From Candidatus Limnocylindrales bacterium (GTDB lineage Bacteria; Moduliflexota; Moduliflexia; Moduliflexales; JAUQPW01), in contig DATMBG010000051.1 in NCBI GenBank assembly GCA_035559535.1, positions 434,001 through 498,000 on the forward strand: 64,000 nucleotides of DNA, written 5' to 3'. Below the pieces are notes generated by a model that saw only the letters and a program-made list of their open reading frames with translations, ran no database searches and was not told the DNA's origin. How positions within the stretch are numbered: position 1 is the first letter of the stretch; every line of letters begins with the position of its first letter. Positions 19,847 to 43,308 of this stretch are shown in pieces. The position numbers were made by a program, and so were the translations under genes.

Positions 19847-19875
19847 ATTTTAGGAAAAATTAAATTCTTTTTTTG

Positions 19876-20304: not shown

Positions 20305-20343
20305 ATAAAAGGTAAAGACCCAGGGCTATGCCTATAACTCAGA

Positions 20344-20371
20344 GTACGGGCGGACGGCCGTCCGCCCGTAC
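20344..20371. repeat. REP-like perfect 28-bp palindrome
   Basis: gtacgggcggacggccgtccgcccgtac. Confidence 0.9.
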
Positions 20372-20524
20372 TTTTTCTTGTGATCCAATCTTAATCGAGA
20401 ATAAGGTCTAGAGGTCCTGCCGCAGTGCAAGGAGAGTTTGCAGCAGAACCTCAGGGGTATTTCGAGAGAGGAGTCCAGAAACAAGATACGGACAAAAATG
20501 TCCTACTTTTCATCCCCCCCGTCT

Positions 20525-25206: not shown

Positions 25207-25275
25207 ACTCTTAGAATGTTTTAGATCACCTCACAAAGGAAAATGAGGTGACTTCAGACTTTTGTATGGATAACC

Positions 25276-27012
25276 ATGGTAAAGAATACAAAGAATAAAA
25301 AATGGTTCGAACGACCTTTCAAGGTCATCAGTTTGATATTATTGTTGGGTACCATGGGCCATCCGTGGGCCATCGCTAAAAGTCAGAACCAACCGGCCAC
25401 ATATCTTTCCCCTCAGCTCAAGGGAGACAGGCAACCTTCAACAACCGATAAAGGCCCAAAATTCTTACCGGATGATCCCATCTGGGTAGATCCCGATCGA
25501 TTTTCCATCCCTAAGCCCCGGCAAATTGAGTTAAGCCAGGTCTATGACTTCCTGGAGAACACCTTTGCAGACCCAGGGGGTAGCTTTAACCGGCGGGCTC
25601 AAAATATTAATACCTTGGGAGAGGTCCCTGATTCCAGTTGGTTTACCAACCGAATTGGACTTCATCCCATGACCGTGGAGCAATTGGTTCGGGGTCCCAA
25701 CCGGGGGGATGGACCTGACAGGTCGCAACCCTGGACGATTATTAAAGCTAAATCCGAAGGAATTACACCCGGGTTTGTAATCCGAGATGGACGAGGAGAT
25801 ATCTACTTTATCAAGTTCGATCCTTTACAATATCCCCAGATGGCAACCTCTACCGAGGTAATCAGCACCAAGTTTTTCTATGCCTTTGGATATAACGTGC
25901 CCGAAAACTATCTGGCCTTTCTGCAACCAGATCAACTTCAAATCGATCCCGAAGCCGTGGTTACCGGGGAAGATGGCAAGAAAAGAAAGATGACCCTGGA
26001 GGATGTCGTAGAGCTTCTCAAGAAGGTTCCTAAACGTCCAGATGGAACCATTCAAGTTGTTGCAAGCCTTAAACTTCCTGGAGAGCCGTTAGGGCCTTTT
26101 AAATATTATGGAACACGAAGTGATGACCCCAACGATATTTTCCCCCATGAAGATCGGCGCGAGTTACGGGGACTACGCGTCTTTGCTGCCTGGTTGAATC
26201 ACAACGACTCCCGCAGTATTAACTCTCTGGATATGTACGTCACCGAGGAAGGACGGAGTTATGTTAAACATTACCTCATCGATTTTGGCGCCACGCTGGG
26301 TAGTGCCTCTGTAAAACCCAATGCACGTCGTGAAGGTTTTGCCTATCTCCTGGAATGGGACCCTATATGGAAGTCTGCTTTGACGTTAGGATTTAAAGGT
26401 CGTCCCTGGCAGCATATCAAATATCCCAATTATCCCGAGATAGGAAGATTCGAATCTTCCTTCTTCAGACCGGAGAGTTGGAAACCCAACTATCCCAATC
26501 CTGCATTCATTCGGATGCAGAACGAAGATGCCTTTTGGGCAACCCGTACCGTCATGCATTTCAATGATGAAGCCATCCGGGCCATTGTGAAAACCGGACA
26601 AATCTCCAATCCAGAAGCCGAGAACTACCTGATTGAAACCCTCCTTCGAAGAAGAGATAAGATTATTCAGTACTACTTGAGTCAGATTAATCCCCTGGAT
26701 GATTTTCAACTAAACGACGAGACCCGAACTTTAAACTTCAAAAACCTGGGAGTAGAGGCTAAGCTGGCTCCGGTGGAAGCTTATGAGTATCAATGGTTCC
26801 GATTCGATAATCAACGAGGCTCATCGGAACCCTTAGGTCCCCCTCAATCGCTATCTTCTCCTTCTTTACCTCTTCCACAGGATGGTTCTCCCTATTGGAT
26901 GGTAAGGATACGAACGATAAGTAAAAACCAGGTAAACTGGAAGAAGAAGGTAGAAGTGTTTATACGAAACGGTTCACATAGAACCGTTGTAGGCATTGAG
27001 AGAGAGAATTAA
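25276..27012 (+). CDS. Exported protein with atypical (HipA/PI3K-like) kinase motifs (copy 1)
   Basis: Signal peptide (AIA), EGITPG, YFIKFD, STEV, NHNDSRSIN, IDFG. Confidence 0.65.
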   Translation: MVKNTKNKKWFERPFKVISLILLLGTMGHPWAIAKSQNQPATYLSPQLKGDRQPSTTDKGPKFLPDDPIWVDPDRFSIPKPRQIELSQVYDFLENTFADPGGSFNRRAQNINTLGEVPDSSWFTNRIGLHPMTVEQLVRGPNRGDGPDRSQPWTIIKAKSEGITPGFVIRDGRGDIYFIKFDPLQYPQMATSTEVISTKFFYAFGYNVPENYLAFLQPDQLQIDPEAVVTGEDGKKRKMTLEDVVELLKKVPKRPDGTIQVVASLKLPGEPLGPFKYYGTRSDDPNDIFPHEDRRELRGLRVFAAWLNHNDSRSINSLDMYVTEEGRSYVKHYLIDFGATLGSASVKPNARREGFAYLLEWDPIWKSALTLGFKGRPWQHIKYPNYPEIGRFESSFFRPESWKPNYPNPAFIRMQNEDAFWATRTVMHFNDEAIRAIVKTGQISNPEAENYLIETLLRRRDKIIQYYLSQINPLDDFQLNDETRTLNFKNLGVEAKLAPVEAYEYQWFRFDNQRGSSEPLGPPQSLSSPSLPLPQDGSPYWMVRIRTISKNQVNWKKKVEVFIRNGSHRTVVGIEREN

Positions 27013-27129
27013 AGTAGGAAAACGGAGACTGCCCTGGATTTAACCAAAAGTCAGAGGAGAAACCCGTCTTCATTGATCCGATGTAAGGCCTATCCGGATC
27101 AAAGAAAACGGATTTCCGGGTAGGAGTTT

Positions 27130-28482
27130 ATGAGGACTGTAGAAGTCAGATCCAGAAAGAGCGTGCTAGAGCAGTTCCTTGGGCTCTTCACCGAAGTTCG
27201 AGCCGGGGAAGGACCGACCGTCCTTCTATTGACCATAAACCTGTTTCTTATTCTGACTGCTTATTACGTCCTTAAACCTGTACGTGAAGCCCTGATCCTT
27301 GCGGGAGGAGGTGCCGAGATAAAAAGCTATGCGGCGGCGGGGCAGGCTCTCTTACTTCTCGGTGCAGTACCCCTCTATTCTGCACTGGCAAGCCGTTTCA
27401 CAAGACGCCGACTTATCAATACTGTTACGGTTTTCTTCACTGCTTGTCTGGTATTTTTCTACCTTCTCGCCCATCTTAATGTCCCCCTGGGAGTTGTGTT
27501 TTATTTGTGGATGGGAATCTTTAACCTGATGGTTATAGCTCAAATCTGGTCCTTTGCCAACGACCTTTATACTCCAGAAGAAGGAAAACGTCTCTTCCCT
27601 ATTGTAGCCTTTGGGGCTTCCTCAGGAGCTGTATTTGGAAGTTTTATTACCAGCCATCTTATCGGCCTGCTCGGAGTGTATCAACTTCTTTTGGTCGGTG
27701 CAGCTATTTTGATTCTAAGCCTTCTCATTACAAATTTCATCGATCAGCGAGAACAATACCAAGTTAAAATAAAGGCGGGACCGAAACCTGCCTTGTCACC
27801 AGGAGAAGCGCCCATTGGCAAAGGAGGCGGCTTTCAACTGGTTATTAAGAGTAAGTACCTGCTTTTAATCGCCTGCCTTATGTTATTTTTGAACTGGGTA
27901 AATACCAACGGAGAATATATCCTGGGAAAAACGGTATCAAAGGCGGCCATTGAGGCAGTAGCTTCAGGAAACTCGGGAGGGCTCTCCGAAAAAGAATTTA
28001 TAGGAAAGTTTTACTCGGACTTTTTTACCTGGGTAAACATGTTGGGACTCCTGGCCCAGCTTTTCCTGGTTTCTCGTATCCTCAAATACCTGGGCATACA
28101 GATTGCGATCCTTATTCTACCAATAATTGCCCTGAGTGGTTATGCCTTACTTGCCTTCTATCCCATCTTGGGTGTAGTCCGTTGGGTAAAGATTGCAGAG
28201 AATGCAACCGACTATAGTCTACAAAATACCGTTCGCAACGCTTTGTTTTTACCCACTACACGAGAAGAAAAATACAAAGCTAAACAGGCTGTTGACACCT
28301 TCTTTGTGCGGGCCGGAGATGTTCTCTCCGCAGGATTGGTCTATGTCGGGGTCAATAAGCTGGCCTTCAACACCAAAAATTTTGCCCTGGTAAACCTTGG
28401 GCTTGTGGTCATCTGGTTCATCCTTGCAATTTTTATCGGCAAAAAGAACCAACAATTAACGACTCCTGCCTCTCAAAGCTAA
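27130..28482 (+). CDS. NTT/TLC (ATP:ADP antiporter family) nucleotide transporter-like protein
   Basis: AYYVLKPVREAL, WSFANDLY...KRLFP, DYSL, EKYKAK..DTFFVRAGD; about 12 TM. Confidence 0.85.
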   Translation: MRTVEVRSRKSVLEQFLGLFTEVRAGEGPTVLLLTINLFLILTAYYVLKPVREALILAGGGAEIKSYAAAGQALLLLGAVPLYSALASRFTRRRLINTVTVFFTACLVFFYLLAHLNVPLGVVFYLWMGIFNLMVIAQIWSFANDLYTPEEGKRLFPIVAFGASSGAVFGSFITSHLIGLLGVYQLLLVGAAILILSLLITNFIDQREQYQVKIKAGPKPALSPGEAPIGKGGGFQLVIKSKYLLLIACLMLFLNWVNTNGEYILGKTVSKAAIEAVASGNSGGLSEKEFIGKFYSDFFTWVNMLGLLAQLFLVSRILKYLGIQIAILILPIIALSGYALLAFYPILGVVRWVKIAENATDYSLQNTVRNALFLPTTREEKYKAKQAVDTFFVRAGDVLSAGLVYVGVNKLAFNTKNFALVNLGLVVIWFILAIFIGKKNQQLTTPASQS

Positions 28483-28858
28483 ATTCGCTTTTTATACGGT
28501 TTTTAAAGAAGTCAGTGCTTTTAAGAAACTTCTAAAGACTTTGATTCAGTACCCCGGGGTTAAACTGATACAAGTCTGTTAAGGTCAGTTTCTCTTATTT
28601 CCTTTTTTACCGGATCTTCTTGAAAGCCTCCTGTCCCCTTTCAGGAATAGGTTTTTCCTCGCCTAACCCTTTTTGTGTCAGGAAAGGAGAATTTGGAGAG
28701 GGCTTGGGGACCTCACTCTCTCTTTTTTTGGGAGGGAAGGAAAGTTGGAAGAGTCAGGTCCAATATTTTTTTTGTTTCTCCCGGGCGTATCTAAAGACTC
28801 CGTACGAATTTATCTCTCTACTTTACCCTGACGGCATCCTTTACTTTTTCGATGGGGT

Positions 28859-28897
28859 TTAACAGAAATTTAACGAATCATTCATAATGGCATAATG
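28859..28897 (+). promoter_or_regulatory. Pho-box-like 11-bp periodic direct repeats
   Basis: ttaaca-gaaat-ttaacg-aatca-ttcata-atggc-ataatg, same architecture as upstream of pstS. Confidence 0.5.
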
Positions 28898-28972
28898 GTC
28901 GGTTGCTATTAACAATATAGAACTTATGCCCCTGCCTATCAGATTCAAATTCTCGGAGCTATCGGCCAGATT

Positions 28973-29287
28973 ATGAGCAAGTTATATACATCAGAAGAAT
29001 TTCACTTGAAATTAGAGGGACTTCATGTGAAGTGTCCTTATTGTAGTTCAGATGCAATTTATCGATATGGAAAGGCACGAACAGGAAAACAGCGCTTCCT
29101 ATGCCTCTTATGTGGAAAGCAATTTACCTTTGGAGCCAAAAAATCTGAGGTAAGGAATAGACCTACCTGTCCTACCTGTGGAAAGTTCATGCATCTCTAT
29201 AAGAGGGAAGAAAAAACCCTTCGATTCAGGTGTTCAAATTATCCAGAGTGCAGAACGTACCTGAAAACCCTAATGAAGGAGGGATAA
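28973..29287 (+). CDS. Double zinc-ribbon protein (InsA-like ribbon + topoisomerase-type C4 ribbon)
   Basis: CPYC..IYRYGK...QRFLCLLCGKQF and CPTCGKFM...FRCSNYPECR; next ATG 1 nt after its stop. Confidence 0.75.
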   Translation: MSKLYTSEEFHLKLEGLHVKCPYCSSDAIYRYGKARTGKQRFLCLLCGKQFTFGAKKSEVRNRPTCPTCGKFMHLYKREEKTLRFRCSNYPECRTYLKTLMKEG

Positions 29288-29288
29288 A

Positions 29289-29660
29289 ATGAGCTATTAT
29301 ATTCATAACATTCCAGGAAGACTACGCATCAAGACTCCTGTTGCTAAAAGCAGCTCTCAGCAGGCTAAAGCCATCCAAAGAATTCTTCACTCGATACCTG
29401 GCATTCTTTCAACCCTTGTAAACCCTCTTACAGGGAGTATTGTTATTCACTATGATCCTGAGGTAGTGAACTCGGAAGAAATCTTGAATACCCTGAATCA
29501 GCAAGATTATTTTGACTGGTCCCGGGCGGTAACAAATGATCAATATATACGGGATATAGTCGCAAAAATAGGTAAGGTAATTTGGAAAGCTTTTTTTGGA
29601 ACCTTGGTAGAAGAAGCCTTAGAAGGCTCTTCTCTCTCCTTCATAAAGGTTCTTATATAA
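29289..29660 (+). CDS. HMA2-like (FezC-like) domain protein
   Basis: YIHNIPGRLRIK...GI...NPLTGSIVIHYD; no CxxC. Confidence 0.8.
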   Translation: MSYYIHNIPGRLRIKTPVAKSSSQQAKAIQRILHSIPGILSTLVNPLTGSIVIHYDPEVVNSEEILNTLNQQDYFDWSRAVTNDQYIRDIVAKIGKVIWKAFFGTLVEEALEGSSLSFIKVLI

Positions 29661-29815
29661 CAGGGTGCTTCCCTTCATCACTTTATCTTTTGGTACCAAA
29701 TTTTCAAGGGTGAAATAAACTTACCCTTTTATTCCCATTTTTTAACCAAGGTCGGTAAGGCAGTTCTGGCCCTTATCAAACCCAACAAGTTATCCCGGAA
29801 CTGGACCGTGGAGGG

Positions 29816-31009
29816 TTATGATCCGGATAGAACCTGAACCTTATCGGTAACTTCCCAGGGAAGTCCCAAATCCATCCTGCCAACATGGCCATAGGCAGCC
29901 AGTTTTCTATAGAAACCTCCCTTAACGGTAGCAGGAAGAAATCTCAGGTTAAATTGTTTAATGATCCCCGCAAGGCGAAAATCGAAATGTTTCTGAATGC
30001 GCGTCATGATTTCTTCATCGGGGATTTTACCTGTGCCAAAGGTTTCTACCTGAACACTTACGGGTCGTGAAAGGCCGATGGAATAACTTAACTGAACCTC
30101 GCATTCAGAGGCAAGGCCGGCGGCAACCACATTTTTAGCAGCATATCGGGCTACATAGGCACCGATCCGATCTATTCGCATAGGATCCTTTCCGCTCAGA
30201 GCAGCACCACTATGTCGAGAATATTCTCCATAGGTATCTATGGCCGTTTTTCTTCCGGTAAGGCCAGAGTGGCTGGAGGGACCGCCTATAATGAGTGGGC
30301 CATCTGGGTTGATGAATATTCGGGTTTTTTCGTCGGGCTGAATTTCTTCATCTTGAAATACCGGACCAATAATAACCTCCCGGAGATCTTCTCTCAGCTT
30401 CGCTAAATCGGGATCTTTGGGTTTATTTTGACTGGCTATAACTGTGATACTATGAATCCGATAGGGCTTACGATTTCTATATTCGACGCCTACCTGGGTC
30501 TTGCCATCGGGAGTGAGATAGGGGAGTATTTTTTGGAATCTTACGGAGGTAATCCGCCTTGCAAGCTTATGGGCAAGCCAGATTGGAAGAGGCATCAGGG
30601 CGGGAGTTTGGTCACATGCAAAGCCAAAAACCGTAACCTGGTTTTTTACAGGAATCTGGTCTATTTCCTCCTCTGACAGCTTTTTTTCGTCAAAATACAT
30701 TTGCTCTTCTAGGGGTGACTCCTTAAGACTGGTTACAATACTGCAAGTCTTACTGTTAAAATCCGGGTATTCATAACCGACTTGACTGATGACCTGTCTT
30801 GCAGTATTTGGAATATCCACGCTGGCGGTAGATGCAAATCGGGCCGCTATGAAGAGGATAGCCGTAGATACTGCACATTCCGCAATAATACTGGAATAAG
30901 GATCCTGTTGAAGGAATCTATCGATGATGGCATCACTGATTTGATCACAAAGCTTATCAGGATGCCCTTCCGTGACAGATTCCGATGTAAACATGAAATC
31001 TTTTTTCAT
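29816..31009 (-). CDS. metK: Divergent methionine adenosyltransferase (MetK) paralog
   Basis: FTSESVTEGHPDK, PDGK, GLTGRK, SGKD, AAYGH retained; GAGDQG signature replaced by PVKNQV. Confidence 0.9.
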   Translation of the reverse strand: MKKDFMFTSESVTEGHPDKLCDQISDAIIDRFLQQDPYSSIIAECAVSTAILFIAARFASTASVDIPNTARQVISQVGYEYPDFNSKTCSIVTSLKESPLEEQMYFDEKKLSEEEIDQIPVKNQVTVFGFACDQTPALMPLPIWLAHKLARRITSVRFQKILPYLTPDGKTQVGVEYRNRKPYRIHSITVIASQNKPKDPDLAKLREDLREVIIGPVFQDEEIQPDEKTRIFINPDGPLIIGGPSSHSGLTGRKTAIDTYGEYSRHSGAALSGKDPMRIDRIGAYVARYAAKNVVAAGLASECEVQLSYSIGLSRPVSVQVETFGTGKIPDEEIMTRIQKHFDFRLAGIIKQFNLRFLPATVKGGFYRKLAAYGHVGRMDLGLPWEVTDKVQVLSGS

Positions 31010-31115
31010 AAATGCCTACCCTTAATTAGGAGTAAATTTAGGGGATAATCTCGGTTGGAAGTAGCTTTCTTCACCAACCCAGGATCATTTTCACATGGCT
31101 TCTATCAAACGATTC

Positions 31116-34100
31116 TTAGAATATCTTTTTATTTTTCGTTATTTCATTTAATATAAGCGGAACCAGGGCACTACTCCCTACGACCAGGCTATCAGTCAGA
31201 CTTATAGGGGTAATGCCGAGGAGATTCCGGATTCCTGGAATCAGGAGAGCGACGATTTGTAATGCAAAGGAGCCTCCTAAAGCCATCGTAAGATAAGTGT
31301 TAGACGGAAGTTTCCCTTTATCCCATAAACCGTATTTCTCAGAGCGGCAACTCATAGCATGAAGAAGCTGACTTGAGGTTAATCCCATAAAGGCCAGAGT
31401 ACTTGCCTGGGGCCCCCGACCATATTTTAGAATCCCGTAACCATAAGCTCCCAAGGCACCACCGGCTATTGTTCCCGCTTCGAAGATTATTCTTTTAAAA
31501 TCGGATGTTTTAAGGATAGGTTCCTCGGGGTCTCGGGGAGGTCGGCTAAGGATATCAGGTTCTGGAGATTCCAGAGCAAGAGCAAGACCTGGAAAGATAT
31601 CCGAAATTAAGTTAATCCACAGGAGTTGCATGGCGTTCAAAGGATGACCCAGACCTGCCGTAAGGGCCACAAACATCACCATGATTTCACTCAGGTTAGT
31701 AGCCAAGAGGAAATGAACCGATTTCCGTATGTTATTATAAATAGTCCGTCCCTGGCTTAGGGCAACAATCATAGTTTCGAGGTTATCGTCTTCAAGTATA
31801 ATATCGGCTACTTCTCGAGCCACATCGGTCCCTGTCTTTCCCATGGCAATTCCGATATTTGCTGCCTTTAAAGCCGGTCCATCATTAATTCCATCGCCTG
31901 TCATGGCAACGACTTTTCCGGCCCTCTGGAGAGCTTGAACAATCCGCAGCTTATGGGCAGGGCTGACCCTTGCGAAAACGTGTACCCGTTCGGCTAATCC
32001 CTTTAAAATCTCCGGGTCCATTTCGGTAAGATGGGTTGAATCCAGAATTTCCAGTTGCTTATCCTGACTTAGATGGAGTTCCTTTCCTATGGCGTAAGCC
32101 GTCGGGCTTTGATCTCCTGTTATCATGACCGTATTGATTCCGGCTTGGTGAAGAACTCCAAGAACTTCCTTGACCCCTTTTCTTATGGGATCTATCATCC
32201 CGATAAGACCGAGCCATATCAACCCTTTCTGGACGTTAAGATTTTCCTCTCCCTCATCGAAGTAAGTATGGGCAACCCCCAGAACCCGAAGGGCCTCTCC
32301 GGCCATGAATTCATTCTCCATTTCTATGCGTAGTCGATCCTCTTCCGTAAGTGGGATCTTTATTCCATCTTTGATCTGCCAATCACAAAGGGATAAAACC
32401 TCTGTAGGACTCCCTTTTAAGGCCAGAAGCAGAGAAGACTTACCGGATTCCCCTATATCATGAGTCCTATGAAGGGTGCTCATAAAGTTACGATTTTCGG
32501 AACGGTGACTGATCTTCACTATGGGATGTACTTTCCGAAGTTCTATCACATCAACCCCCGCACTGATCCCCATGTGAATCAGCGCATTTTCAGTAGGAGA
32601 ACCTTTAAGAATATACTCATTGTCTGTTCTAATGATTTCAGTTTCATTACAGAGAACTGAGATATGAATCAACCTCAATAATTCTTCACAGGTGAAAGGG
32701 TTAATCGACTCCTTTCCCGTCATGAATTTGCCCTCGGATACTCTCAAGGATTTCATTCCCGTATGGATAGCAACCACAGCCATTTTATTCAAAGTAATGG
32801 TTCCTGTCTTATCCAAACAAAGGGTTTGAACAGAACCCAGAGTCTCTACAGCATCGAGATGGCGGATAAGAACTTTCTGTTTCCGCATATTCCGAATACC
32901 CAGGGCCAGGGTGGTGGTTGCAACGGTTGGAAGTCCTTCAGGAACAGCAGCTACGGCCAGAGAGATAGAGGTGGTCAGCATTTGAGTGAAACCATATCCC
33001 CGCAGGAGTCCAATTACGAAAACCAAACCACAAATCGTACCACCTATCAGAACCAGCTGACGTCCCATTCTGTTTAACTGCCTTTCCATGGGAGTTTCAG
33101 GGGTTTCCGCCTCTCCAACAAGGGTTTGAATCTGGCCCATCTCCGTAAACTTACCAGTAGCCACAACAACGGCAAGTCCCTGTCCCCCGGTAACCAAAGT
33201 TCCCATATAAACCATATTTACTCTATCGGCCAAAGGGACAGCTTTTGAAGAGAGAATAGGTTGAGAGGTTTTAAGAACCGGCACACTTTCCCCGGTTAGA
33301 GCAGATTCATCTATACTAAGATGATGGCTCTCAATGAGTCGACCATCAGCAACCACGTAGCTTCCGGGTCTAAGGACCAGCACATCTCCTGGAACGACTT
33401 CCTCTGCCCTTATTTCCTGGAGGTAACCCTGCCGGATTACCAAAGCGGAAGGTCTGATTAAGCTCTTGAGAGCATGAATGGTTTTCTCCGATTGGGTTTC
33501 TGTTATATAACCAATCGTTGCGTTGATGGCAACAACCCCCATAATAACCACTGCATCTGCAAGTCCACCGGTAAAAAGGGAAATACCCGCCGCTACAGTT
33601 AAAAGAGCTACAGGAAGAGAGTTTAGTTGATCAAAAAAGATACTAAGCCCGGAGCGAGGAGCCGATTCAGGTAAGACATTGGGCCCATATGTCTTCAAAC
33701 GTTCCCTGGCAACCTCACCGGATAAACCGGATTCCCCTGAGCTATTAAAGGCAGTTATAACCTCCTCGGTATCCACCAGATACCAGGGTTTGAGAACCTG
33801 CTCTTCCTCTTGAGTAATCAGCTTTCTTAAGGTTCTTCTGATAGCAGGCAGGGAAGAAGCATCCAAATCCGCCGGTTTTTCTTCTTTTCTATAAGATAGG
33901 GGGAAAGCTGAGGTTATTAATCTCTCAGAAGGGGGATTTAAAGGCTTTGGTAAGTTCTCTTTGGAAAAAGAAAAGGATAAATTTTCTTGCCGGGTTGATC
34001 CTCCTGGAAGAAAAGAAGGACCGAGGTTTTCGGATCGCCCAGTTTCCTGGTTTTCATATTTAAGCGCAATATCCTCAATAAGGGCCGCTATTTCTGATAC

Positions 34101-34292
34101 CGTGTTATCTGAGTTAAAAACAACCAGAACATTTCCGGTCAATACGTTGGCAGAGACCTGATAGATTCCTTCCTTATTTAGGAGCCTGAACTCAAGTTCT
34201 TTTTTAAAGGAGTTTGAACGATAAAGCAAAGATACTTTGTATCGGGCTCTTCCCTTTACTGCGGTGTGGATCGCCTGGATTAACACCTTCAC
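31116..34292 (-). CDS. P2A (Ca2+-type) P-type ATPase with an N-terminal HMA2-like domain
   Basis: TGES, AVPEGLP, DKTGT, GDGIND, TNLSE, WINLISD; N-terminus IHTAVKGRARYK...NVLTGNVLV. Confidence 0.9.
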   Translation of the reverse strand: MKVLIQAIHTAVKGRARYKVSLLYRSNSFKKELEFRLLNKEGIYQVSANVLTGNVLVVFNSDNTVSEIAALIEDIALKYENQETGRSENLGPSFLPGGSTRQENLSFSFSKENLPKPLNPPSERLITSAFPLSYRKEEKPADLDASSLPAIRRTLRKLITQEEEQVLKPWYLVDTEEVITAFNSSGESGLSGEVARERLKTYGPNVLPESAPRSGLSIFFDQLNSLPVALLTVAAGISLFTGGLADAVVIMGVVAINATIGYITETQSEKTIHALKSLIRPSALVIRQGYLQEIRAEEVVPGDVLVLRPGSYVVADGRLIESHHLSIDESALTGESVPVLKTSQPILSSKAVPLADRVNMVYMGTLVTGGQGLAVVVATGKFTEMGQIQTLVGEAETPETPMERQLNRMGRQLVLIGGTICGLVFVIGLLRGYGFTQMLTTSISLAVAAVPEGLPTVATTTLALGIRNMRKQKVLIRHLDAVETLGSVQTLCLDKTGTITLNKMAVVAIHTGMKSLRVSEGKFMTGKESINPFTCEELLRLIHISVLCNETEIIRTDNEYILKGSPTENALIHMGISAGVDVIELRKVHPIVKISHRSENRNFMSTLHRTHDIGESGKSSLLLALKGSPTEVLSLCDWQIKDGIKIPLTEEDRLRIEMENEFMAGEALRVLGVAHTYFDEGEENLNVQKGLIWLGLIGMIDPIRKGVKEVLGVLHQAGINTVMITGDQSPTAYAIGKELHLSQDKQLEILDSTHLTEMDPEILKGLAERVHVFARVSPAHKLRIVQALQRAGKVVAMTGDGINDGPALKAANIGIAMGKTGTDVAREVADIILEDDNLETMIVALSQGRTIYNNIRKSVHFLLATNLSEIMVMFVALTAGLGHPLNAMQLLWINLISDIFPGLALALESPEPDILSRPPRDPEEPILKTSDFKRIIFEAGTIAGGALGAYGYGILKYGRGPQASTLAFMGLTSSQLLHAMSCRSEKYGLWDKGKLPSNTYLTMALGGSFALQIVALLIPGIRNLLGITPISLTDSLVVGSSALVPLILNEITKNKKIF

Positions 34293-34360
34293 ACTTGAGA
34301 CTTCCGATTTCAGACCATGGATTTTAAGCTGAAACCTGAAATCTGTAATAAGAGATCGAT

Positions 34361-35071
34361 TTATTCCTGTTTTCTTCCCTTTGTCCTTGTCGTAATCTCC
34401 GGCTTTTCAGGAGCTTCTTGAGGAGTTTCCTTAGAAAGTTTCTTCTCTTCTAAACTTGAAGAAGTTGGAGAAGGTTTAGGTAGTGCAGCTCCTACAACTT
34501 CCTTCGCCCCCTCCGCAACTCCAACGAGCATATCCTTAACAGCTTTGACTGCCGTGTTTCCAATGGTACTGGCTGCTTCAATGGCACCGAGAACAACTTC
34601 TCTCGCAACAGCTTCTACATTCCCACCCATTTCTCGAGTTGCTTCGATAATCCCATCTACCGAGCGCCTTGTTACAAGACCGATATCTGCTCCAATTTCA
34701 GCAGCACCTTTGAACGTCCCTTTAACGGTTTGAACTGCGACGGTAACCACATCCCCTCCCACATCGCTAACTCCCATGATAACCCCCTTGGCGACATTTT
34801 TGGCGCTCAAGATTAATCCTGTTCCTACCTCTTCGGTAGCCTGAATGGCTCCATTTATAATCTCCTTGGTGATATGGATACTTTCTGTAGCTGTTGATCC
34901 TGTAGTTCGCAGGGTGTGCGAAACAGTATTCCTGACCAGCGTAGTAATCTCGGCCTCGATTTCGTTGATCCCTCTCAAACTCCCTATAATCCCTTCCTTA
35001 ACCGTTTTCCCAGCTTTCCCTAATTCCCCTCCCAGAGTGGCATTTGATGTGTTGTCCTTATGATCATTCAT
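34361..35071 (-). CDS. Gly/Ala/Val/Thr-rich protein with tandem 22-aa amphipathic repeats
   Basis: GGAGG RBS; about 8 gapless 22-mers, with Gly at positions 6 and 15 in the five central units. Confidence 0.8.
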   Translation of the reverse strand: MNDHKDNTSNATLGGELGKAGKTVKEGIIGSLRGINEIEAEITTLVRNTVSHTLRTTGSTATESIHITKEIINGAIQATEEVGTGLILSAKNVAKGVIMGVSDVGGDVVTVAVQTVKGTFKGAAEIGADIGLVTRRSVDGIIEATREMGGNVEAVAREVVLGAIEAASTIGNTAVKAVKDMLVGVAEGAKEVVGAALPKPSPTSSSLEEKKLSKETPQEAPEKPEITTRTKGRKQE

Positions 35072-35115
35072 ATAAACCTCCTTTAAAATCCCCCAAAAGC
35101 TTTTCTATTGGCTTT

Positions 35116-35619
35116 TCACGGGTCCTTTCTGTTCTTATCTGACTTAAACTTAAAAAACTCATAAACACTGAATCCGTACCAAAAAGCCGTATACCAGGGA
35201 ATAGGTGCGAGATTTCCCCTGAGAATTTGAAAAAGACCTGCGCTCACCAGACCTAAAAACACCAGGCCTGGAAAATCCAGAGTACCCCGGGTAAACTCCT
35301 TCATTCGATTCTCTAACTCTTGAAGTTGTCTGGATATCGTCCAGGATAAGTTCTCTGACTGAGGGTTCAGATCTCCAAGTTGAAAAAGATTATTTTTTTG
35401 AGCATATGCTGCAAGGGCTTTCCAGTCCCGAGTGTCCCCCGTATGAACAAAAAGTATGCTTCCCGTTAAGGGGTTTACTTCTAGCTTTTTAATTCCCGGA
35501 TAGGTAGAAAACAGAGTCTTCAGAGATGAAAAATAAACTTCATCTCCTCTTTTCGAGGGAATTTTTATACGTAGCCTTTCGGTTGTAGAATGAACGATAT
35601 AAGCATCGGGAAGCATCAA
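35116..35619 (-). CDS. HMA2-like domain + C-terminal membrane segment (FezC-like)
   Basis: IVHSTTERLRIK...NPLTGSIL, then GLVFLGLVSAG...PWYTAFWYG. Confidence 0.8.
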   Translation of the reverse strand: MMLPDAYIVHSTTERLRIKIPSKRGDEVYFSSLKTLFSTYPGIKKLEVNPLTGSILFVHTGDTRDWKALAAYAQKNNLFQLGDLNPQSENLSWTISRQLQELENRMKEFTRGTLDFPGLVFLGLVSAGLFQILRGNLAPIPWYTAFWYGFSVYEFFKFKSDKNRKDP

Positions 35620-35915
35620 TGGATGGGTTCTCCTTTAGCGTTAACAATAGGGGACGTTTTTTGGGATGTTTCTGAGAGTTCCGCCTTTGCCTCCGCGATT
35701 ATATCTTCAACCATCTCTCCAGCTTCAGCAACTAGTTCTCTACCCTTTTCATAGATAAGGATCCCACTTTTTATAGCGGCTTTGGCTAAAGGTTTAACTA
35801 CATTGGCTGCAATGGGAATTACAACCGGCGAGAGGATCGTTGCTCCTACGCCTATTGCAAGTCCGGTTGCAATACTACCTCCTAAACCATCCCTAAGATC
35901 ATCTAAAAGAGCCAT
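35616..35915 (-). CDS. DUF5132-like small GxxxG membrane protein (FezA/PacL-like)
   Basis: GLAIGVG, KPLAKAAIKSGILIYEKG, EAGEMVEDIIAEAKAE; GGAGG RBS. Confidence 0.8.
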   Translation of the reverse strand: MALLDDLRDGLGGSIATGLAIGVGATILSPVVIPIAANVVKPLAKAAIKSGILIYEKGRELVAEAGEMVEDIIAEAKAELSETSQKTSPIVNAKGEPIH

Positions 35916-36284
35916 AATAAACCTCCTTTTTTTATCTTTGTTTGTGTACCAGTTATTATAAAAATCTCAAAAGATTAACCCCACAGGGAGTTAACATCAT
36001 AAAAATAGTTCCTTGCCCTACAGGTGGTTAGCAATTTTTATAATTTTTTCATTACTTACCTACTCATAGAAATGACCTCCTTTACCCGTCCTTTATCCCA
36101 ATTCTGATTAAGTAGGTCGCACCCTAGGCACTCCCCCTGAAAAGGTTACATCCTGAGGAGGGACGGCTGTACAGGGCCCTTAGGCAGGTAATCCTTCCCT
36201 CCCCGCATGGAGAGAGAGTTAAAGTAGGACCCTATCCACTTTACATCCCATTTCCTTACTGACCTGGTATCAGTTTTATTTCCT

Positions 36285-36393
36285 TTAATAAAATCTTAAC
36301 AGAAACGTCACGGAACTATAACACGGCAGGAGTGAAGTTATAAAAGATTCGGATTTAATACAATTTTAATACCGTCATCATACAAACATAATA
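36285..36393 (+). promoter_or_regulatory. Two arrays of Pho-box-like 11-bp repeats upstream of pstS
   Basis: ttaata/ttaaca/gtcacg/ataaca at 36285, 36296, 36307, 36318; ttaata/ttaata/atcata/ataata at 36355, 36366, 36377, 36388. Confidence 0.7.
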
Positions 36394-36516
36394 ATCAGGC
36401 GGCTTATTAAGAGTGACTTCTTTAGGATAAAGAATCGGATTAACCCAATTCTCATCAGATGGTCCTTTACAGACCATGGTATTGTTTACCCACTAAAGAT
36501 AAAGGAGGTTAAATTT

Positions 36517-37527
36517 ATGAGAAACCAAAACTTTTGGATCCGTTATCTATTCATTCCAGTTGGGATACTTTTACTGGTCGGATATACCCTTGCCCAGGAG
36601 ACCTCTGTTAAAGTAGATCCCGCCATTCCCGATTATAAGCCGACCAAAGGTATTTCAGGAAATCTTAAGAGTGTCGGTTCGGATACCATGAATAACTTGA
36701 TGACCCTATGGGCAGAAGGCTTTAATAAGTTTTATCCTGGGGTTAAAATTGAAATTGAAGGAAAAGGTTCCAGTACGGCTCCACCTGCATTGACTGCCGG
36801 AACCGCCCATTTTGGTCCTATGTCTCGAGAGATGAAGGCTCAAGAGATCGATGAGTTTGAGAAAAAGTATGGTTACAAACCCACAGAAGTGAAAACCTCT
36901 CTGGATGTTCTGGCGGTTTATGTTCACAAAGATAATCCTATCCAATGCCTGAGTCTTCCGCAGATCGATGCGATCTTTTCCAAAACCCGACGGGGAGGTT
37001 ATGAAAAGGATATACGAACCTGGGGAGATCTGGGTTTAACAGGGGAATGGGCTGATAAACCTATCAGTCTGTATGGGCGTAATAGCGCTTCCGGTACTTA
37101 TGGATACTTCAAGGAGCATGCCTTATTTAAGGGTGATTACAAGGATGAAGTCAAAGAACAACCCGGAAGCTCATCAGTTGTGCAGGGCGTTGCTTCAGAT
37201 AAATTCGGAATCGGCTACAGTGGAATTGGTTACAAGACGGCAGATGTACGGGCTGTACCCCTTGCAGCCAAGGAAGGGGCTACCTGCTATGAGGCTAATA
37301 TGGAAAATGCTTACAGCGGCGAATATCCCATTGCCCGATTCTTATATATCTATGTCAATAAAGCCCCGGGTAAGAGCCTCGATCCACTGCGACGAGAATT
37401 TCTGAGTTTCGTTTTAAGCAAACAAGGTCAGGAAGTTGTCGTGAAGGATGGATTTATTCCTTTACCCGCCAGTTTGATTCAGGAAGAAAGAAGCAAACTA
37501 GGCCTCATGGAGAATAATAAAGGTTAA
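36517..37527 (+). CDS. pstS: Phosphate ABC transporter substrate-binding protein
   Basis: [22 protein letters not shown]. Confidence 0.95.
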
Positions 37528-37632
37528 GACCGTAACCTGAATCTATTGTTCGTTGTCCGCCGGGTCCCGTTGTCAGGGATAACGGTAGCGGACAACGGGC
37601 AATGGGTGAAGGAATAGAATAAATAAAGGAAC

Positions 37633-40302
37633 ATGGAGGACGGACAACGAACTACAGATCATAGGCTGCCGGTCAGATCGAAACGCCCAAGAAAAACCAA
37701 AAGAAGCGTTATCTTCATTGATAAGTTTTCTACAACTATTATCAGTCTTGGGGGTATTCTGGTAATCATAGCCGTACTGGGAATCTTGATATTTCTAATA
37801 ACGGTCGTAGTTCCTCTCTTCCGGGGTGCCAGGGTAATTTCTTTTACCTCTTATAACCTTCCTCTCACAGATCGGGAGTTACTCTTTGCGGAGATGGACG
37901 ATTATTTATCGTTAGGGATGGCTTTATCCAGAGATGGCTTTCTGACTACCTTCCAGGCTTCGACAGGAAAGAAGATGTTTGAAGAGAGAATAGTCCCTTC
38001 CGACGCCGAGATAACTGCCTTCTCCAGGACCTTACGCAGAGGTTATGTGGCTCTAGGGTTGTCCAATGGAGAGGTTTCTCTGGGAAACCTCTCGTTTAAG
38101 ATTTCCTTTCCTACGGAAGAAGAGGTTCCGGAAGAATTTAAGAATTTGAGTCCTGGAGCCTCAGTGGTATTTGGAAAAGGGATCTTAGAGAGAGCCCCGG
38201 AAGGTCAATTCCGAAAGATTGAAGAACAGATAGAATTTGCTCCACCTGTAAAAGTAGGAACAAGTCAAGCTTCGGTAGTTTTGATAGATTACAGGCCCCT
38301 GGAAGGCCAGATAGAGGAATTAGTTACCCTCCAGGCAGATGGTCGGTTGTTCTTGAGCAGGGTGACCAGGAAGAAGAATCTCCTGACCGGTAAAGTAACC
38401 ACCAGTTTAGACAGGAGGGAAATACCCTACTCAGAGTCTGAGAACCAAAAGTCGAAAACCGGGGAGTTAGAACCAGGCCTGCCCATAAAACTTTTGGTAA
38501 GTGGGCAGGGAGATCAGCTTTACCTGGCCTGGAAGGATGGAACACTCCATCGATACGACCTTCGGAATCCGGAAAAAGCCGTTGTTGTCGAGAAAACTAA
38601 TCTGATTCAATGGAATACAACGAATACTCAACAACGAATCCTTACCCAATTAAAGTTCATGATCGGAGATCAATCCCTTATCTCTACAGATTCTGCGGGA
38701 AACGTTATCGCCTGGTTTCGGGTAGAAAAAGGACCCCAGGCCCGGGGAAGCGACGGCTATGAACTTGTTCCGGCCCATATACTGGAAAAGCATCATGGCC
38801 CGGTATCGGCTTTGGCCGTGTCGCCCCGGGATAAAAGCCTGGTTACGGCAACTTCCGATGGGGAAGTTTTCCTCCGGCATATGACTTCAGAACAGGTTCT
38901 TGCCCGGTTGTCCCTTCCTTCCAAAGAAGAGATCCTTACCATCCAATTAACTCCTAAATTGGATGGTATCTTTGCCGTCGATAAATCGCTAACGGCTTAT
39001 CTCTGGAAAATCCATAATCCGCATCCAGAAACAACCTGGAAGTCTATCTTTGGTAAAGTCTGGTATGAGGGATATCCGAAACCTACTTATACCTGGCAAT
39101 CCTCCAGTGGAACCGACGATTTTGAGCCAAAACTCAGTCTGGTCCCCTTAATCTTCGGTACCCTGAAGGCAACGTTTTACTCTCTCCTGTTTGCGGTACC
39201 GGTGGCTCTTCTGGCTGCAATTTATACTTCTGAGTTCCTGGATAAAAAACTTAAATCTATTCTAAAACCCGGTATAGAGACGATGGCTTCCCTACCCAGT
39301 GTAGTTTTAGGTTTTATTGCGGCCTTGGTGTTGGCTCCTTTCGTGGAGAACTGGGTCCTGTCCATCTTGTTTGCCTTTGGGATGCTACCTTTGATTCTTC
39401 TCTTCTGGGGCTATATCTGGCAGCTTTTACCCCCCCAAATTACCATCCGACTCTCAGGAGCCCTTCAATTTATCATTATCCTGGCCGTGATGATAATCGG
39501 TTTTAATTTGGCCGAGAATTTAGGCGTGAGGGTAGAAAAGCTGATTTTCCATGGAGATTTTAAAGCCTGGCTGGATGGGCGCATTGGAACGGGTACCCCT
39601 CTCTGGTTTATCCTGTTTTTCCCCTTTTCAATCCTCCTGGTTTCTCTATTTAAAAAAAGGTTCCTAAACAGGATAATCTGGGAAAGGATCTCTTATAAAA
39701 ATCACCTGAGAGCAGGGTTAATAGAATTTATGGGGGCCCTCTCCGTCTTTATAGTATCCGTTTTTCTAAGTTATGGAACAGGCCTATTACTGACAACCCT
39801 GGGATGGGATGCGCGGGGCGAGTTGGTTGGAACTTATGTACAAAGAAATACTCTGATCGTCGGGTTTGCCATGGGATTTGCGGTTATTCCCATTATCTAT
39901 ACCATCACCGAAGATGCTCTGGCTGCGGTTCCTGAATCTCTTCGTGCAGCCTCCTTAGCCTGTGGAGCGACACGATGGCAGACGGCCATTCGAATTGTTC
40001 TTCCCACGGCGGCCAGTGGGATCTTTTCGGCTGTTATGGTCGGCCTGGGGAGAGCCGTTGGGGAAACCATGATTGTGGTCATGGCAGCCGGAAATACACC
40101 GGTTCTGGATCTAAATATTTTCAACGGACTTCGTGCCTTATCTGCCAACATCGCCGTGGAATTACCGGAAGCAGTTAAAGACAGTACCCTGTATCGGATG
40201 CTTTTCCTGGCAGCGCTACTGCTCTTTGTAATGACTTTTATCGTTAATACCTTAGCTGAAATTATTCGACTCAGATTTAGAAAGAAGGCCTATCAACTCT
40301 AA
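37633..40302 (+). CDS. pstC: Phosphate ABC permease PstC with a large periplasmic propeller-like insert
   Basis: LPSVVLG, GRAVGETM, EAA loop; operon position. Confidence 0.92.
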   Translation: MEDGQRTTDHRLPVRSKRPRKTKRSVIFIDKFSTTIISLGGILVIIAVLGILIFLITVVVPLFRGARVISFTSYNLPLTDRELLFAEMDDYLSLGMALSRDGFLTTFQASTGKKMFEERIVPSDAEITAFSRTLRRGYVALGLSNGEVSLGNLSFKISFPTEEEVPEEFKNLSPGASVVFGKGILERAPEGQFRKIEEQIEFAPPVKVGTSQASVVLIDYRPLEGQIEELVTLQADGRLFLSRVTRKKNLLTGKVTTSLDRREIPYSESENQKSKTGELEPGLPIKLLVSGQGDQLYLAWKDGTLHRYDLRNPEKAVVVEKTNLIQWNTTNTQQRILTQLKFMIGDQSLISTDSAGNVIAWFRVEKGPQARGSDGYELVPAHILEKHHGPVSALAVSPRDKSLVTATSDGEVFLRHMTSEQVLARLSLPSKEEILTIQLTPKLDGIFAVDKSLTAYLWKIHNPHPETTWKSIFGKVWYEGYPKPTYTWQSSSGTDDFEPKLSLVPLIFGTLKATFYSLLFAVPVALLAAIYTSEFLDKKLKSILKPGIETMASLPSVVLGFIAALVLAPFVENWVLSILFAFGMLPLILLFWGYIWQLLPPQITIRLSGALQFIIILAVMIIGFNLAENLGVRVEKLIFHGDFKAWLDGRIGTGTPLWFILFFPFSILLVSLFKKRFLNRIIWERISYKNHLRAGLIEFMGALSVFIVSVFLSYGTGLLLTTLGWDARGELVGTYVQRNTLIVGFAMGFAVIPIIYTITEDALAAVPESLRAASLACGATRWQTAIRIVLPTAASGIFSAVMVGLGRAVGETMIVVMAAGNTPVLDLNIFNGLRALSANIAVELPEAVKDSTLYRMLFLAALLLFVMTFIVNTLAEIIRLRFRKKAYQL

Positions 40303-40315
40303 CAGGAAGAAGAAA

Positions 40316-42082: not shown

Positions 42083-42242
42083 GTTGCCCGAGAATAGAAT
42101 ATGGAGGTTAATCCCCTATACCTTAAGCTAATGCTTCCTCCCCGACCTTTCCCCGCTTTGCAGGGAAAGAAATTTGCGCCAAAGTTTCTTTCTCTGTAAA
42201 ACAGGGAAGGAATAGGGCGAAGATACCCTTTAGCAGGGCTTT

Positions 42243-43106
42243 ATGAAGACCATGAAAAATTCTACTCATTGGATCAGGTCTAAGTCTGTAGAAGAGAAGT
42301 TAGAAGAATTTGCAGAACTGGAGTCGACCATTCATCCAGAACTGGACACCGAAAATGCTATTATCGAAATAAAGGACTTTAATCTCTGGTACGGGTCTCA
42401 ACAGGCACTCTATAATATCAACATGCGTATTCCTTATGGGAAAGTGACGGCCCTTATGGGACCCTCGGGTTGTGGAAAGTCTACATTGATCCGCTGTATC
42501 AACCGATTGAACGATTTAATAGATAACGTTCGTATCAAAGGGGAAATGTATCTCAATAAAGATCCCATTTATGCTCCAGATGTGGATGTGATCGAACTCC
42601 GAAAACGGATTGGTATGGTTTTTCAAAAATCCAACCCCTTCCCCATGAGCATTTACGAAAACGTAGTTTATCCACTTCGAATCGATGGAGAAAATCGCAA
42701 AGCTGTTTTGGATGAGGTTGTGGAGCGAAGCTTAAAAAGTGCTGCGCTGTGGGAGGAAGTCAAAGACCGACTTCACCATTCGGCGCTGGAACTTTCCGGT
42801 GGTCAACAACAACGTCTCTGCATCGCCCGGGCTATTGCCCAGGAACCGGAAGTGCTACTCATGGATGAACCTTGCTCGGCCCTGGATCCCATCGCAACGG
42901 GAAAAATCGAGGATCTTATCCACGCCCTCAAAGGGGAGTATACCGTGGTGATCGTAACCCATAACCTACAGCAAGCGGCCCGAATCTCAGACTATACGGC
43001 TTTCATGTACCTTGGAAAGCTTATTGAATTCGGACCCACGGCAGTTATTTACCAAAATCCTATAAGGCCTCAAACCGAGGCCTATATCACAGGTCGATTT
43101 GGATAA
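42243..43106 (+). CDS. pstB: Phosphate ABC ATP-binding protein
   Basis: [28 protein letters not shown]. Confidence 0.97.
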
Positions 43107-43308
43107 TAGGAAATCAGGAGCCGGGGATCAGGGACCGGAAGGAAAGAAGGAATACCAAATCTCTATTGAAATACGCCACAGGCTGGATGACCTCTCCCCG
43201 TTCGGACTTTGATAAATTCAGGACGAACGGTATACGGCTGCCGGCTCATTTCAATCAGAAATAGGTATGACGCCGGTCCCTGATTCCTGAATTCTGACTC
43301 CTGGAGAT

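Follow-up and report, generated by a model that had tools for sequence, protein, structure and literature searches.

A 64,000-nucleotide stretch of the genome of Candidatus Limnocylindrales bacterium (GTDB phylum Moduliflexota; GenBank assembly GCA_035559535.1, contig DATMBG010000051.1, positions 434,001 to 498,000 of the forward strand), referred to below as the window, carries a cluster of seven genes arranged around a P-type ATPase that resembles calcium pumps and bears a CoBaHMA domain at its N-terminus. The CoBaHMA-headed pump and a divergent paralogue of MetK, the S-adenosylmethionine (SAM) synthetase, are the invariant core of this cluster. Upstream of the pump lie genes for a DUF5132 protein, a CoBaHMA protein with a C-terminal transmembrane (TM) hairpin (CoBaHMA-TM) and an amphipathic repeat protein. 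These five minus-strand genes read as one operon, and a pair of genes for a zinc-ribbon protein and a soluble CoBaHMA protein of 123 amino acids (aa) converges on it from the plus strand (Table 1). The best reading of the cluster, offered tentatively and with less than even confidence, is a module linked to phosphate starvation that sequesters calcium together with phosphate.

The evidence that carries this reading begins with the co-conservation of the genes. Relatives were sought in one genome per species; 293 stretches encode one, and the best 80 of these were taken as loci, in which open reading frames (ORFs) were called and searched with profiles built from the window proteins. The loci belong to Nitrospirota and Thermodesulfovibrionales, Desulfobacterota-type deltaproteobacteria including Geobacter, anammox Planctomycetota, Binatia, and filamentous cyanobacteria (Nostoc, Fischerella, Calothrix and others). 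The MetK paralogue stands directly downstream of the pump in 53 of the 56 non-cyanobacterial loci with enough downstream DNA and in 11 of 15 cyanobacterial loci. Upstream of it, 44 of the 52 non-cyanobacterial loci with enough DNA on that side have the genes for the DUF5132, CoBaHMA-TM and repeat proteins in this order; 48 of the 52 have the DUF5132/CoBaHMA-TM pair upstream of the pump and 47 have the repeat protein. Neither the upstream trio nor the repeat protein was found in any of 12 cyanobacterial loci, and the DUF5132/CoBaHMA-TM pair lies nearby in four cyanobacterial loci. Stop codon of the pump and start codon of the MetK paralogue overlap in 38 of 70 ORF calls, possibly an overcount since the caller takes the most upstream start. 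Homologues of the zinc-ribbon protein occur in 31 of the 80 loci, nearly always adjoining the gene for the 123-aa CoBaHMA protein. The whole 5.6-Mb genome yields only three matches to HMA_2, the Pfam family that covers CoBaHMA domains, and one to DUF5132, all of them inside the cluster. With its matches confined here and its order recurring in dozens of genomes, the seven-gene grouping is not a product of chance. A preliminary description of the window, made from the letters alone, had named the same seven ORFs, with positions and domains that were found again, and had pointed to synteny across phyla as one thing to look for; by the counts above the genes are strongly co-conserved.

The cluster is widely distributed. 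Of 301 genomes sampled from the Nitrospirota phylum, 43 have the MetK paralogue by a profile search. Of 301 genomes sampled from cyanobacteria, 16 have it with scores of at least 700 bits, and the many matches at about 500-520 bits come from small genomes and are housekeeping enzymes. Among 151 sampled Desulfobacterota, 13 encode an ORF of 1010-1176 aa with an HMA_2 head. The carriers include cultured strains of Nostoc and Fischerella. The phylum of the window is represented by nine species genomes, and the paralogue is encoded in this one only, G006-G013 being without it; a genome of the same genus has the housekeeping MetK and no other. This occurrence, with absence from a congener, indicates that the cluster was probably acquired horizontally and is probably mobile. 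When an empty site was sought in the same-genus genome G006, the matching contig ended inside the flank, and its pst match is only 66% identical.

The class of the pump bears on what the cluster might handle. Pfam recognizes E1-E2_ATPase, Cation_ATPase_N, Cation_ATPase_C and Hydrolase domains, in keeping with the ten-helix architecture of P2 pumps, and the best NCBIfam matches are to the PMR1-type (629 bits, cut-off 798) and SERCA-type (542 bits, cut-off 703) models, followed by the PMCA type (422 bits, cut-off 507). The protein scores below every NCBIfam Ca2+-ATPase equivalog cut-off, and P1B models give at most 253 bits. Its best solved relatives are human SPCA1 (8iwp) and Listeria LMCA1 (6zhf), both of them Ca2+/Mn2+ pumps, with E about 1e-146, and SERCA follows at about 1e-117. 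On this ranking and these relatives the choice between P2A and P1B-6, which had been left for a check, falls on the former: the pump is classed as P2A-like, not P1B, and its scores set it apart as a distinct subfamily within P2. The catalytic motifs DKTGT, TGES, TGD and GDGxND are invariant in 80 of 80 orthologues. The ligand motifs are PEGLP in TM4, TNLSE in TM5, NLISD in TM6 and SSQLLHAM in TM8; E452, N866, E869, N894 and D898 never vary among the 80 orthologues, position 897 is always Ser or Thr, and the TM8 position Q975 has Gln (70 orthologues), Gly (7) or Glu (3). The SERCA-like ligands that had been picked out by eye in TM4, TM5 and TM6, with a Gln in TM8, hold up in full.

The pump shares with SPCA1, LMCA1 and SERCA a full-length alignment, all catalytic motifs, and the TM4 and TM6 ligands. 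It differs from known P2A pumps in a CoBaHMA head of about 175 residues and in falling short of the PMR1, SERCA and PMCA equivalog cut-offs. Unlike SPCA1, it keeps the Asn and Glu of TM5, and its TM8 Gln aligns with, and replaces, an Asp of the human protein. The matching position in SERCA (SERCA residue numbering) is presumably Glu. The head comprises a CoBaHMA domain at residues ~8-65 and a linker of about 100 residues; it matches HMA_2 with 29.6 bits, just below the cut-off of 30, and its basic signature is strongly kept, with H9 in 78 and G14, R15 and R17 in all 80 orthologues. Two other P2/P3-type pumps are encoded elsewhere in the genome, both without such a head, so the cluster pump is an extra, specialised one. 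From the ligands we infer a cargo of Ca2+ or a look-alike such as Sr2+, Ba2+ or Mn2+. As an observation in its own right, locus L138 (G058:C8:143000-158000) has a P2A-type cluster copy back to back with a CPC-type P1B ATPase that begins with an HMA_2-like PGRVRVK head.

Could the pump simply be an exporter? In this account, which is somewhat unlikely and yet nearly as probable as the sequestration reading, it would be an ordinary Ca2+ (or Mn2+) efflux pump of the cell membrane with its own regulatory subunits and no compartment. A complete P2A ATPase with invariant ligands, whose closest solved bacterial relative, LMCA1, is an exporter, speaks for such an account, and it is the simpler explanation of the pump and its context. 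Its difficulties lie with the partners of the pump, the first of which is the MetK paralogue.

No partner of the pump is more tightly linked or better conserved than the MetK paralogue. Its alignment columns have a mean identity of 77%, versus 60% for those of the pump, a difference that an exporter leaves unexplained. Across five phyla the paralogues are 68-80% identical to one another, and the housekeeping MetKs encoded in these genomes 55-65%; the paralogue is under strong constraint. All three Pfam MetK domains match; on TIGR01034 the cluster copy scores 388 bits and the housekeeping MetK of the same genome (contig C40) 603 bits. Four of five other carriers likewise encode both the cluster and the housekeeping copy, and the fifth, a 2.9-Mb metagenome-assembled genome, shows the cluster copy only.

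An alignment of 65 cluster copies with five housekeeping enzymes, with E. coli numbers mapped by motif position, separates what is kept in the paralogues from what is changed. The paralogues keep GHPDK, which holds the catalytic His14, the K+-site Glu, PDGK (D163, K165), GRK (R244, K245), and SGKDP plus the next Asp. E55 is replaced by Arg; at D238, at least 90% of copies have His; neither Q98 nor its loop is conserved; R229 has become Pro; GAGDQG reads xVxNQV, with D118 mostly Asn; DTYGG reads DTYGEY; GGGAF is altered; and seven residues are inserted near the C-terminus. F230 is partly kept, and is Leu in the window copy. In the MetK enzyme, methionine is bound by Q98, D238 and E55 and adenosine by D163, R229, F230 and S99, according to the available text of PMC1282579. 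Given these roles, all three methionine ligands of the paralogue are gone, and two of them have turned basic. The cluster copy is like MetK in its three-domain fold family, a TIGR01034 score above the cut-off, GHPDK and the phosphate-binding motifs; it is unlike MetK in the replaced or lost methionine ligands, in the C-terminal insertion and in being a second copy encoded beside a pump. An "altered MetK" had been noted at the outset, with little weight placed on it; the alteration is real, affecting the methionine-binding residues and sparing the motifs of the triphosphate, Mg and K sites. The paralogue may still bind a triphosphate-type ligand, and it may now either take an anionic molecule in the place of methionine or serve as a sensor or subunit.

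A different role for the core follows if pump and MetK paralogue act together on a small molecule or a lipid rather than in cation storage; the paralogue might, for example, adenosylate a substrate other than methionine for membrane remodelling when phosphate is limiting, with the pump providing ionic conditions or serving as a moonlighting partner. The invariant core consists of exactly these two proteins, GHPDK retains its catalytic His in a protein whose amino-acid pocket has become basic, and a gene for an OlsB-type N-acyltransferase lies directly 3' of the paralogue in at least 11 loci. This account is nonetheless improbable: the cation ligands of the pump are invariant, as expected of a true ion pump, the acyltransferase belongs to part of the loci and is missing from the window, and no candidate substrate is at hand. 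Pump-MetK fusions are weak evidence of contact between the two proteins; the three found (P0122, P0123 and P0153, of 947, 790 and 1090 aa) are singletons, shorter than the summed proteins and with parts of each missing, and so are probably deletions or assembly errors. A complex prediction for the pump head (residues 1-175) with the MetK paralogue, made from alignments of only 40 rows each, returned a score of 0.00, which gives no verdict.

The sequestration reading also draws on the small proteins. The DUF5132 protein has one predicted membrane helix (residues 14-41) containing a GxxxGxG motif (GLAIGVG), followed by a charged helix. In the 167-aa CoBaHMA-TM protein, HMA_2 covers positions 10-153 of the 154-position model, that is domain and TM hairpin, and a hydrophobic segment spans residues 114-134, an architecture like that of the ferrosome protein FezC. 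The 123-aa CoBaHMA protein has no predicted membrane segment. The three HMA_2 domains of the cluster contain no cysteine at all, hence no CxxC, and carry the basic N-terminal motifs GRARYK, GRLRIK and ERLRIK. HMA_2 domains of this kind are called CoBaHMA in the literature, a cysteine-free relative of HMA with conserved basic residues (PMC8890360; 10.1101/2024.07.07.602159), and the cluster agrees with the family as portrayed in the accessible part of PMC8890360 in its cysteine-free HMA-like domain and in its conserved His and basic residues in strands beta0-beta1. The zinc-ribbon protein could be a nucleic-acid-binding regulator.

The repeat protein shows BLOSUM autocorrelation peaks at lags 22 and 44 and a mean hydrophobic moment of 0.39 at 98 degrees, compared with 0.18 +/- 0.025 in shuffles (about 8 standard deviations). 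Its AlphaFold2 model consists of four helices of 40-47 residues with a mean pLDDT of 64; Foldseek gave no PDB match to it at E <=0.001, and the Atlas gave unnamed clusters only. Such amphipathic repeats are typical of lipid-surface proteins, and the repeat protein probably binds a membrane or the surface of an inclusion. Pfam scan, autocorrelation and hydrophobic moment between them bear out the trio of HMA2-like proteins without CxxC and the 22-mer amphipathic repeats of the preliminary description. How would an exporter accommodate these proteins? The DUF5132 and CoBaHMA-TM proteins could be likened to the small single-pass regulators of P-type pumps, and the head of the pump could be autoinhibitory or lipid-sensing; the cyanobacterial copies do without the repeat protein, and often without the small proteins, and CoBaHMA is also fused to other membrane enzymes, such as PAP2 (P0085). 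An exporter has no role for a 236-aa amphipathic repeat protein that is so regularly present outside the cyanobacteria, nor for three or four CoBaHMA copies per cluster.

Sequestration gains its shape from two systems that form inclusions. Ferrosome (fez) clusters encode the pump FezB, of the P1B-6 class and defined by D[Y/F]SCA plus HNxxT; FezB and accessory proteins bear an RxR(xR) motif at the N-terminus, the clusters also encode small proteins with GxxxG, feo/Fur genes lie alongside, and the FezC protein joins an HMA-like head to two membrane helices (Grant et al., 10.1101/2020.01.10.902569). The cluster is alike in having a pump with an N-terminal RxR(xR) domain, a protein that joins this domain to two membrane helices, soluble proteins with the domain and small membrane proteins with GxxxG, in occurring mostly in anaerobes, and in adjoining nutrient-uptake genes, which are feo/Fur for ferrosomes and pst/phoU for the cluster. 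No counterpart of the MetK paralogue, of the 22-mer repeat protein or of the zinc-ribbon protein is named in the available text of the ferrosome paper (10.1101/2020.01.10.902569). Homology was tested in sampled Desulfobacterota through HMA_2 matches on ORFs of about 700-800 aa. Four of the seven regions taken have a pump with both DYSCA and HNxxT. Small HMA_2 proteins lie beside such pumps, one in L132 at 47 bits and two others above the HMA_2 cut-off, and the N-termini of the two DYSCA/HNxxT pumps tested gave 25.7 and 25.6 bits, below the cut-off of 30. The CoBaHMA domain is truly common to the cluster and to ferrosome-type clusters, and the likeness of the small membrane proteins is suggestive. 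Because the pump is of another class than FezB, the cluster is not a fez cluster, and that class makes an iron cargo unlikely. Known from its genes alone, the cluster may still work as a fez cluster does. The ferrosome likeness first proposed for the window has been sustained for the HMA_2 and GxxxG proteins found in clusters with FezB motifs, and not for DUF5132, where it stays below the Pfam cut-off. The parallel drawn with mycobacterial PacL/Ctp clusters found no support: PacL is presumably a DUF1490 protein, a Pfam scan of the small proteins (E <=0.01) gave DUF5132 and a weak DUF1622, and the pump is not P1B.

The second system is the surroundings of the calcyanin gene ccyA. In Microcystis aeruginosa PCC 7806, genes for DUF5132, CoBaHMA-TM and CoBaHMA proteins flank ccyA and cax, and several are co-expressed with ccyA (10.1101/2024.07.07.602159). 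As in the cluster, DUF5132, CoBaHMA-hairpin and stand-alone CoBaHMA proteins there accompany a calcium transporter. The transporter is a Ca2+/H+ exchanger and not an ATPase, and calcyanin is present, whereas none was found for the cluster; the part of that report available to us describes no MetK paralogue or repeat protein in the neighbourhood (10.1101/2024.07.07.602159). The recurrence of the same accessory families in two systems with intracellular mineral inclusions is a further point that an exporter does not accommodate. The likeness also raises the question of whether the cluster loads Ca2+ into inclusions of intracellular amorphous calcium carbonate (iACC), as proposed for transporter genes beside the calcyanin gene. 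Besides the Microcystis neighbourhood, the available literature records cation ATPases near ccyA on a Fischerella megaplasmid (PMC8890360) and intracellular carbonates in some magnetotactic Nitrospirota (PMC12710302). A carbonate function is very improbable: no glycine-rich calcyanin-like ORF was seen in the 15 cyanobacterial loci; the window's genome has no match to Gly-zipper_OmpA, which can stand in for calcyanin only roughly; the recurrent neighbours include neither a carbonic anhydrase nor a bicarbonate transporter; and the recurrent context is phosphate, not carbon.

That phosphate context is the remaining support for sequestration of calcium with phosphate. The operon starts 600 bp from a pst/phoU operon on the opposite strand, an adjacency remarked on in the preliminary description, and it recurs in other genomes: pst/phoU genes lie within 10 kb in 21 of the 80 loci and in 16 of the 41 loci of at least 20 kb. 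Many Nitrospirota loci have phoU-pstBACS, a small CoBaHMA gene and then the operon, divergent; no remnant of the small divergent CoBaHMA gene was found in the 600-bp intergenic region of the window. An OlsB-type N-acyltransferase (PF13444) is a neighbour in 13 loci (for example L012:14696-15559, L018:14493-15287 and L022:14353-15246). Other recurrent neighbours are a GT21 glycosyltransferase (12 loci), DUF3562 (12), a PHP domain protein (10) and GH1 (10). The GT21/PHP/GH1 trio, each member in 10-12 loci, together with the OlsB-type gene, suggests an island for phosphate starvation or lipid remodelling; the OlsB-type, GT21, PHP and GH1 genes are all missing from the window. The same surroundings would suit an exporter: pst/phoU is joined by OlsB-type and GT21 genes typical of phosphorus-free lipid remodelling, and an efflux pump might be induced by phosphate starvation since polyphosphate breakdown and the loss of anionic phospholipids free divalent cations.

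Elements upstream of the operon extend the link with phosphate from gene order to putative control. The regions 5' of the first operon gene were scanned for repeats and elements in 53 cases. GT[TG]A[CA]A hexamers number 62 in the sense and 14 in the antisense direction, and their spacing peaks at 11 bp (12 pairs), with further peaks at 22 bp (3) and 33 bp (4). A pair at 11 or 22 bp is present in 12 of the 53 regions, against 0.08 expected in shuffles. Phased repeats of this kind look like the pattern of an OmpR/PhoB-type regulator, and the pattern by itself does not name PhoB. In cyanobacteria, a Pho-box pattern in its strict form matched none of the 14 regions upstream of pump genes. An 11-bp direct repeat, with TTAAGACTAG(G) present twice, lies about 80-143 nt upstream of the cyanobacterial pump gene in 4 of 14 loci (L054, L060, L073 and L050), versus 0.4 expected in shuffles, which are also the figures for a looser TTAA pair at 11 bp.

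A second element is specific to the operon. In the form GTAGGYAAGTAATGAAAG it is found in 39 of the 53 upstream regions, directly 5' of a -35-like T(A/G)GACA hexamer that is followed about 17 nt on by TAnAnT. As TAGGYAAGTAATGAAA it is conserved across phyla (L004-L083 upstream regions), with one exact copy in the 5.6-Mb genome, and matches with two mismatches occur in the genome at control level. Its position beside the -35 hexamer makes it look like a candidate binding site for an operon-specific factor. A leader-peptide pattern, M-K-[DE]-x-[ILMV]-D, fits the element in 26 of the 39 cases, and a short leader peptide is a possible but less likely explanation, as the ORFs would vary in length between 1 and 48 codons and it is the DNA immediately ahead of the ATG that is best conserved. 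The element is weakly linked to the zinc-ribbon gene among loci with enough flank (2x2 table 19, 6, 5, 4). An Rfam scan of 28500-36600 gave just three matches, all at chance level, and revealed no riboswitch in front of the operon.

Together, these observations can be assembled into a model of calcium and phosphate sequestration. Phosphate limitation would switch on the operon through a PhoB-type regulator bound to the phased repeats and through the operon-specific element beside the -35 hexamer. The pump would move Ca2+ (or Sr2+, Ba2+ or Mn2+) from the cytosol across a specialised membrane, which the GxxxG and CoBaHMA-hairpin proteins would shape or mark and the amphipathic repeat protein would coat, after the manner of FezA- and FezC-like proteins in ferrosomes. 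The basic CoBaHMA heads would hold on to something anionic, be it a lipid or a phosphate polymer. The MetK paralogue, no longer a SAM maker of the usual kind, would use its retained triphosphate site and newly basic pocket for a phosphate-rich ligand, which it might bind or hydrolyse, or on which it might report to the pump. In sum, starvation would induce a store or sink that takes up calcium together with phosphate, comparable to the iron-phosphate ferrosomes that are wired to iron uptake and Fur. The parallel by which fez is to feo/Fur as the operon is to pst/phoU is attractive because ferrosomes hold an iron-phosphate mineral, as stated in the available text of 10.64898/2026.06.16.732667. 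A compartment would also be in keeping with the accessory set common to two inclusion-forming systems, with the retention of the repeat protein and with the several CoBaHMA copies per cluster.

A number of observations weigh against this model. The compartment is postulated from genes, through likeness to inclusion-forming systems. The cluster pump has PEGLP, NxxE and NxxSD and is without the D[YF]SCA and HNxxT that define FezB. Two GxxxG proteins beside DYSCA pumps match DUF6110 at 25 bits, just below the cut-off; DUF5132 reaches only a sub-cut-off 18-19.5 bits in two GxxxG proteins, one beside a DYSCA pump and one beside an HNxxT-only pump; and the FezC-like proteins have no Pfam match and match the cluster profile weakly. 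The 80 loci span at least five phyla but are mostly from Nitrospirota and not phylogenetically independent. Cyanobacterial copies retain mainly the pump and the MetK paralogue, which implies that the core function needs no putative coat. No phosphate or carbonate transporter is among the operon's genes, 25 of the 41 long loci are without nearby pst genes, and no exact GT[TG]A[CA]A pair stands upstream of the operon in the window, so that Pho control here rests on adjacency and on relatives. Finally, phosphate storage during phosphate starvation is not self-evident.

The model has a more specific version, in which the cluster encodes an organelle, induced by phosphate starvation, where phosphate is laid up in a mineral of calcium and (poly)phosphate; it would be for calcium what the iron-phosphate ferrosome is for iron, and a genetically defined relative, in bacteria, of the acidocalcisome. 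The P2A pump would supply the cation, the CoBaHMA domains would grip a phosphate polymer or an anionic membrane, the 22-mer protein would coat the vesicle, and the MetK-derived protein would have been turned from SAM synthesis to the handling of tri- or polyphosphate. This version is doubtful.

If the cluster does build or load a compartment, the ferrosome principle, a P-type pump with CoBaHMA and GxxxG helpers, would be extended from iron to calcium and phosphate, and anaerobic Nitrospirota, Desulfobacterota, anammox bacteria and filamentous cyanobacteria, which are important in the cycling of phosphorus and carbonate, would have their first gene set for such stores. Irrespective of the cluster's function, the MetK paralogue clearly shows an essential and near-universal enzyme recruited to a new role, always beside one pump, and it is more conserved than its parent. 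The prevalence in Nitrospirota, Desulfobacterota and cyanobacteria makes the cluster common enough for study. The CoBaHMA domain and the Microcystis neighbourhood are already in print, and the fusion of CoBaHMA to a P-type ATPase may by itself be listed in the 2024 paper on the CoBaHMA family; the recruited MetK is the truly unusual part. No paper describing the operon or the MetK paralogue was found in a search outside which lay the supplements of the ferrosome and CoBaHMA papers, possible places for related pumps to be listed.

Table 1. Genes and upstream elements of the cluster and its neighbour operon, in window positions
Feature	Position	Strand	Remarks
DUF5132 protein, 99 aa	35616-35915	-	first operon gene; Pfam DUF5132 (PF17195) 52.2 bits, cut-off 25
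CoBaHMA (Pfam HMA_2) protein with C-terminal TM hairpin, 167 aa	35116-35619	-	HMA_2 45 bits
Amphipathic helical-repeat protein, 236 aa	34361-35071	-	about eight 22-residue repeats; no Pfam family above cut-off
P-type ATPase with N-terminal CoBaHMA domain, 1058 aa	31116-34292	-	P2A-type, Ca2+-pump-like
Divergent MetK paralogue, 397 aa	29816-31009	-	388.5 bits on TIGR01034, cut-off 309.4
Double zinc-ribbon protein (InsA/IS1-type and Top1-type), 104 aa	28973-29287	+	Pfam and NCBIfam matches
Soluble CoBaHMA (HMA_2) protein, 123 aa	29289-29660	+	HMA_2 46.9 bits
pstS-pstC-pstA-pstB-phoU, divergent neighbour operon	36517-43983	+	Pfam PBP_like_2, BPD_transp_1 twice, ABC_tran, PhoU; context, outside the operon
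10-nt direct repeat, 11-bp spacing (family D1)	36078-36098	.	next to the conserved element, on its upstream side; GTTACA/GTGACA arrays stand there in relatives
TTAACA-N5-GTCACG-N5-ATAACA, candidate Pho box	36296-36323	+	three hexamers in 11-bp phase, on the pstS side of the shared intergenic region; read by eye
Operon-specific conserved upstream element TAGGTAAGTAATGAAA	36047-36062	-	in 39/53 upstream regions

Within the operon, the CoBaHMA-TM gene overlaps the preceding DUF5132 gene by 4 bases. Genes for an Omp85-like, a 578-aa and a TLC-like protein (23917-28482) have no homologue in the 80 related loci and so lie outside the system. In the neighbour operon, PstC (889 aa, 37633-40302) and PstA (588 aa, 40316-42082) are much longer than usual, and the extension of PstC has a weak WD40-like Pfam match. 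The genome holds a second PhoU locus, on contig C33. Further away in the window, urease genes (ureF and the urease alpha subunit) at 19163-22234 are unrelated to the cluster.

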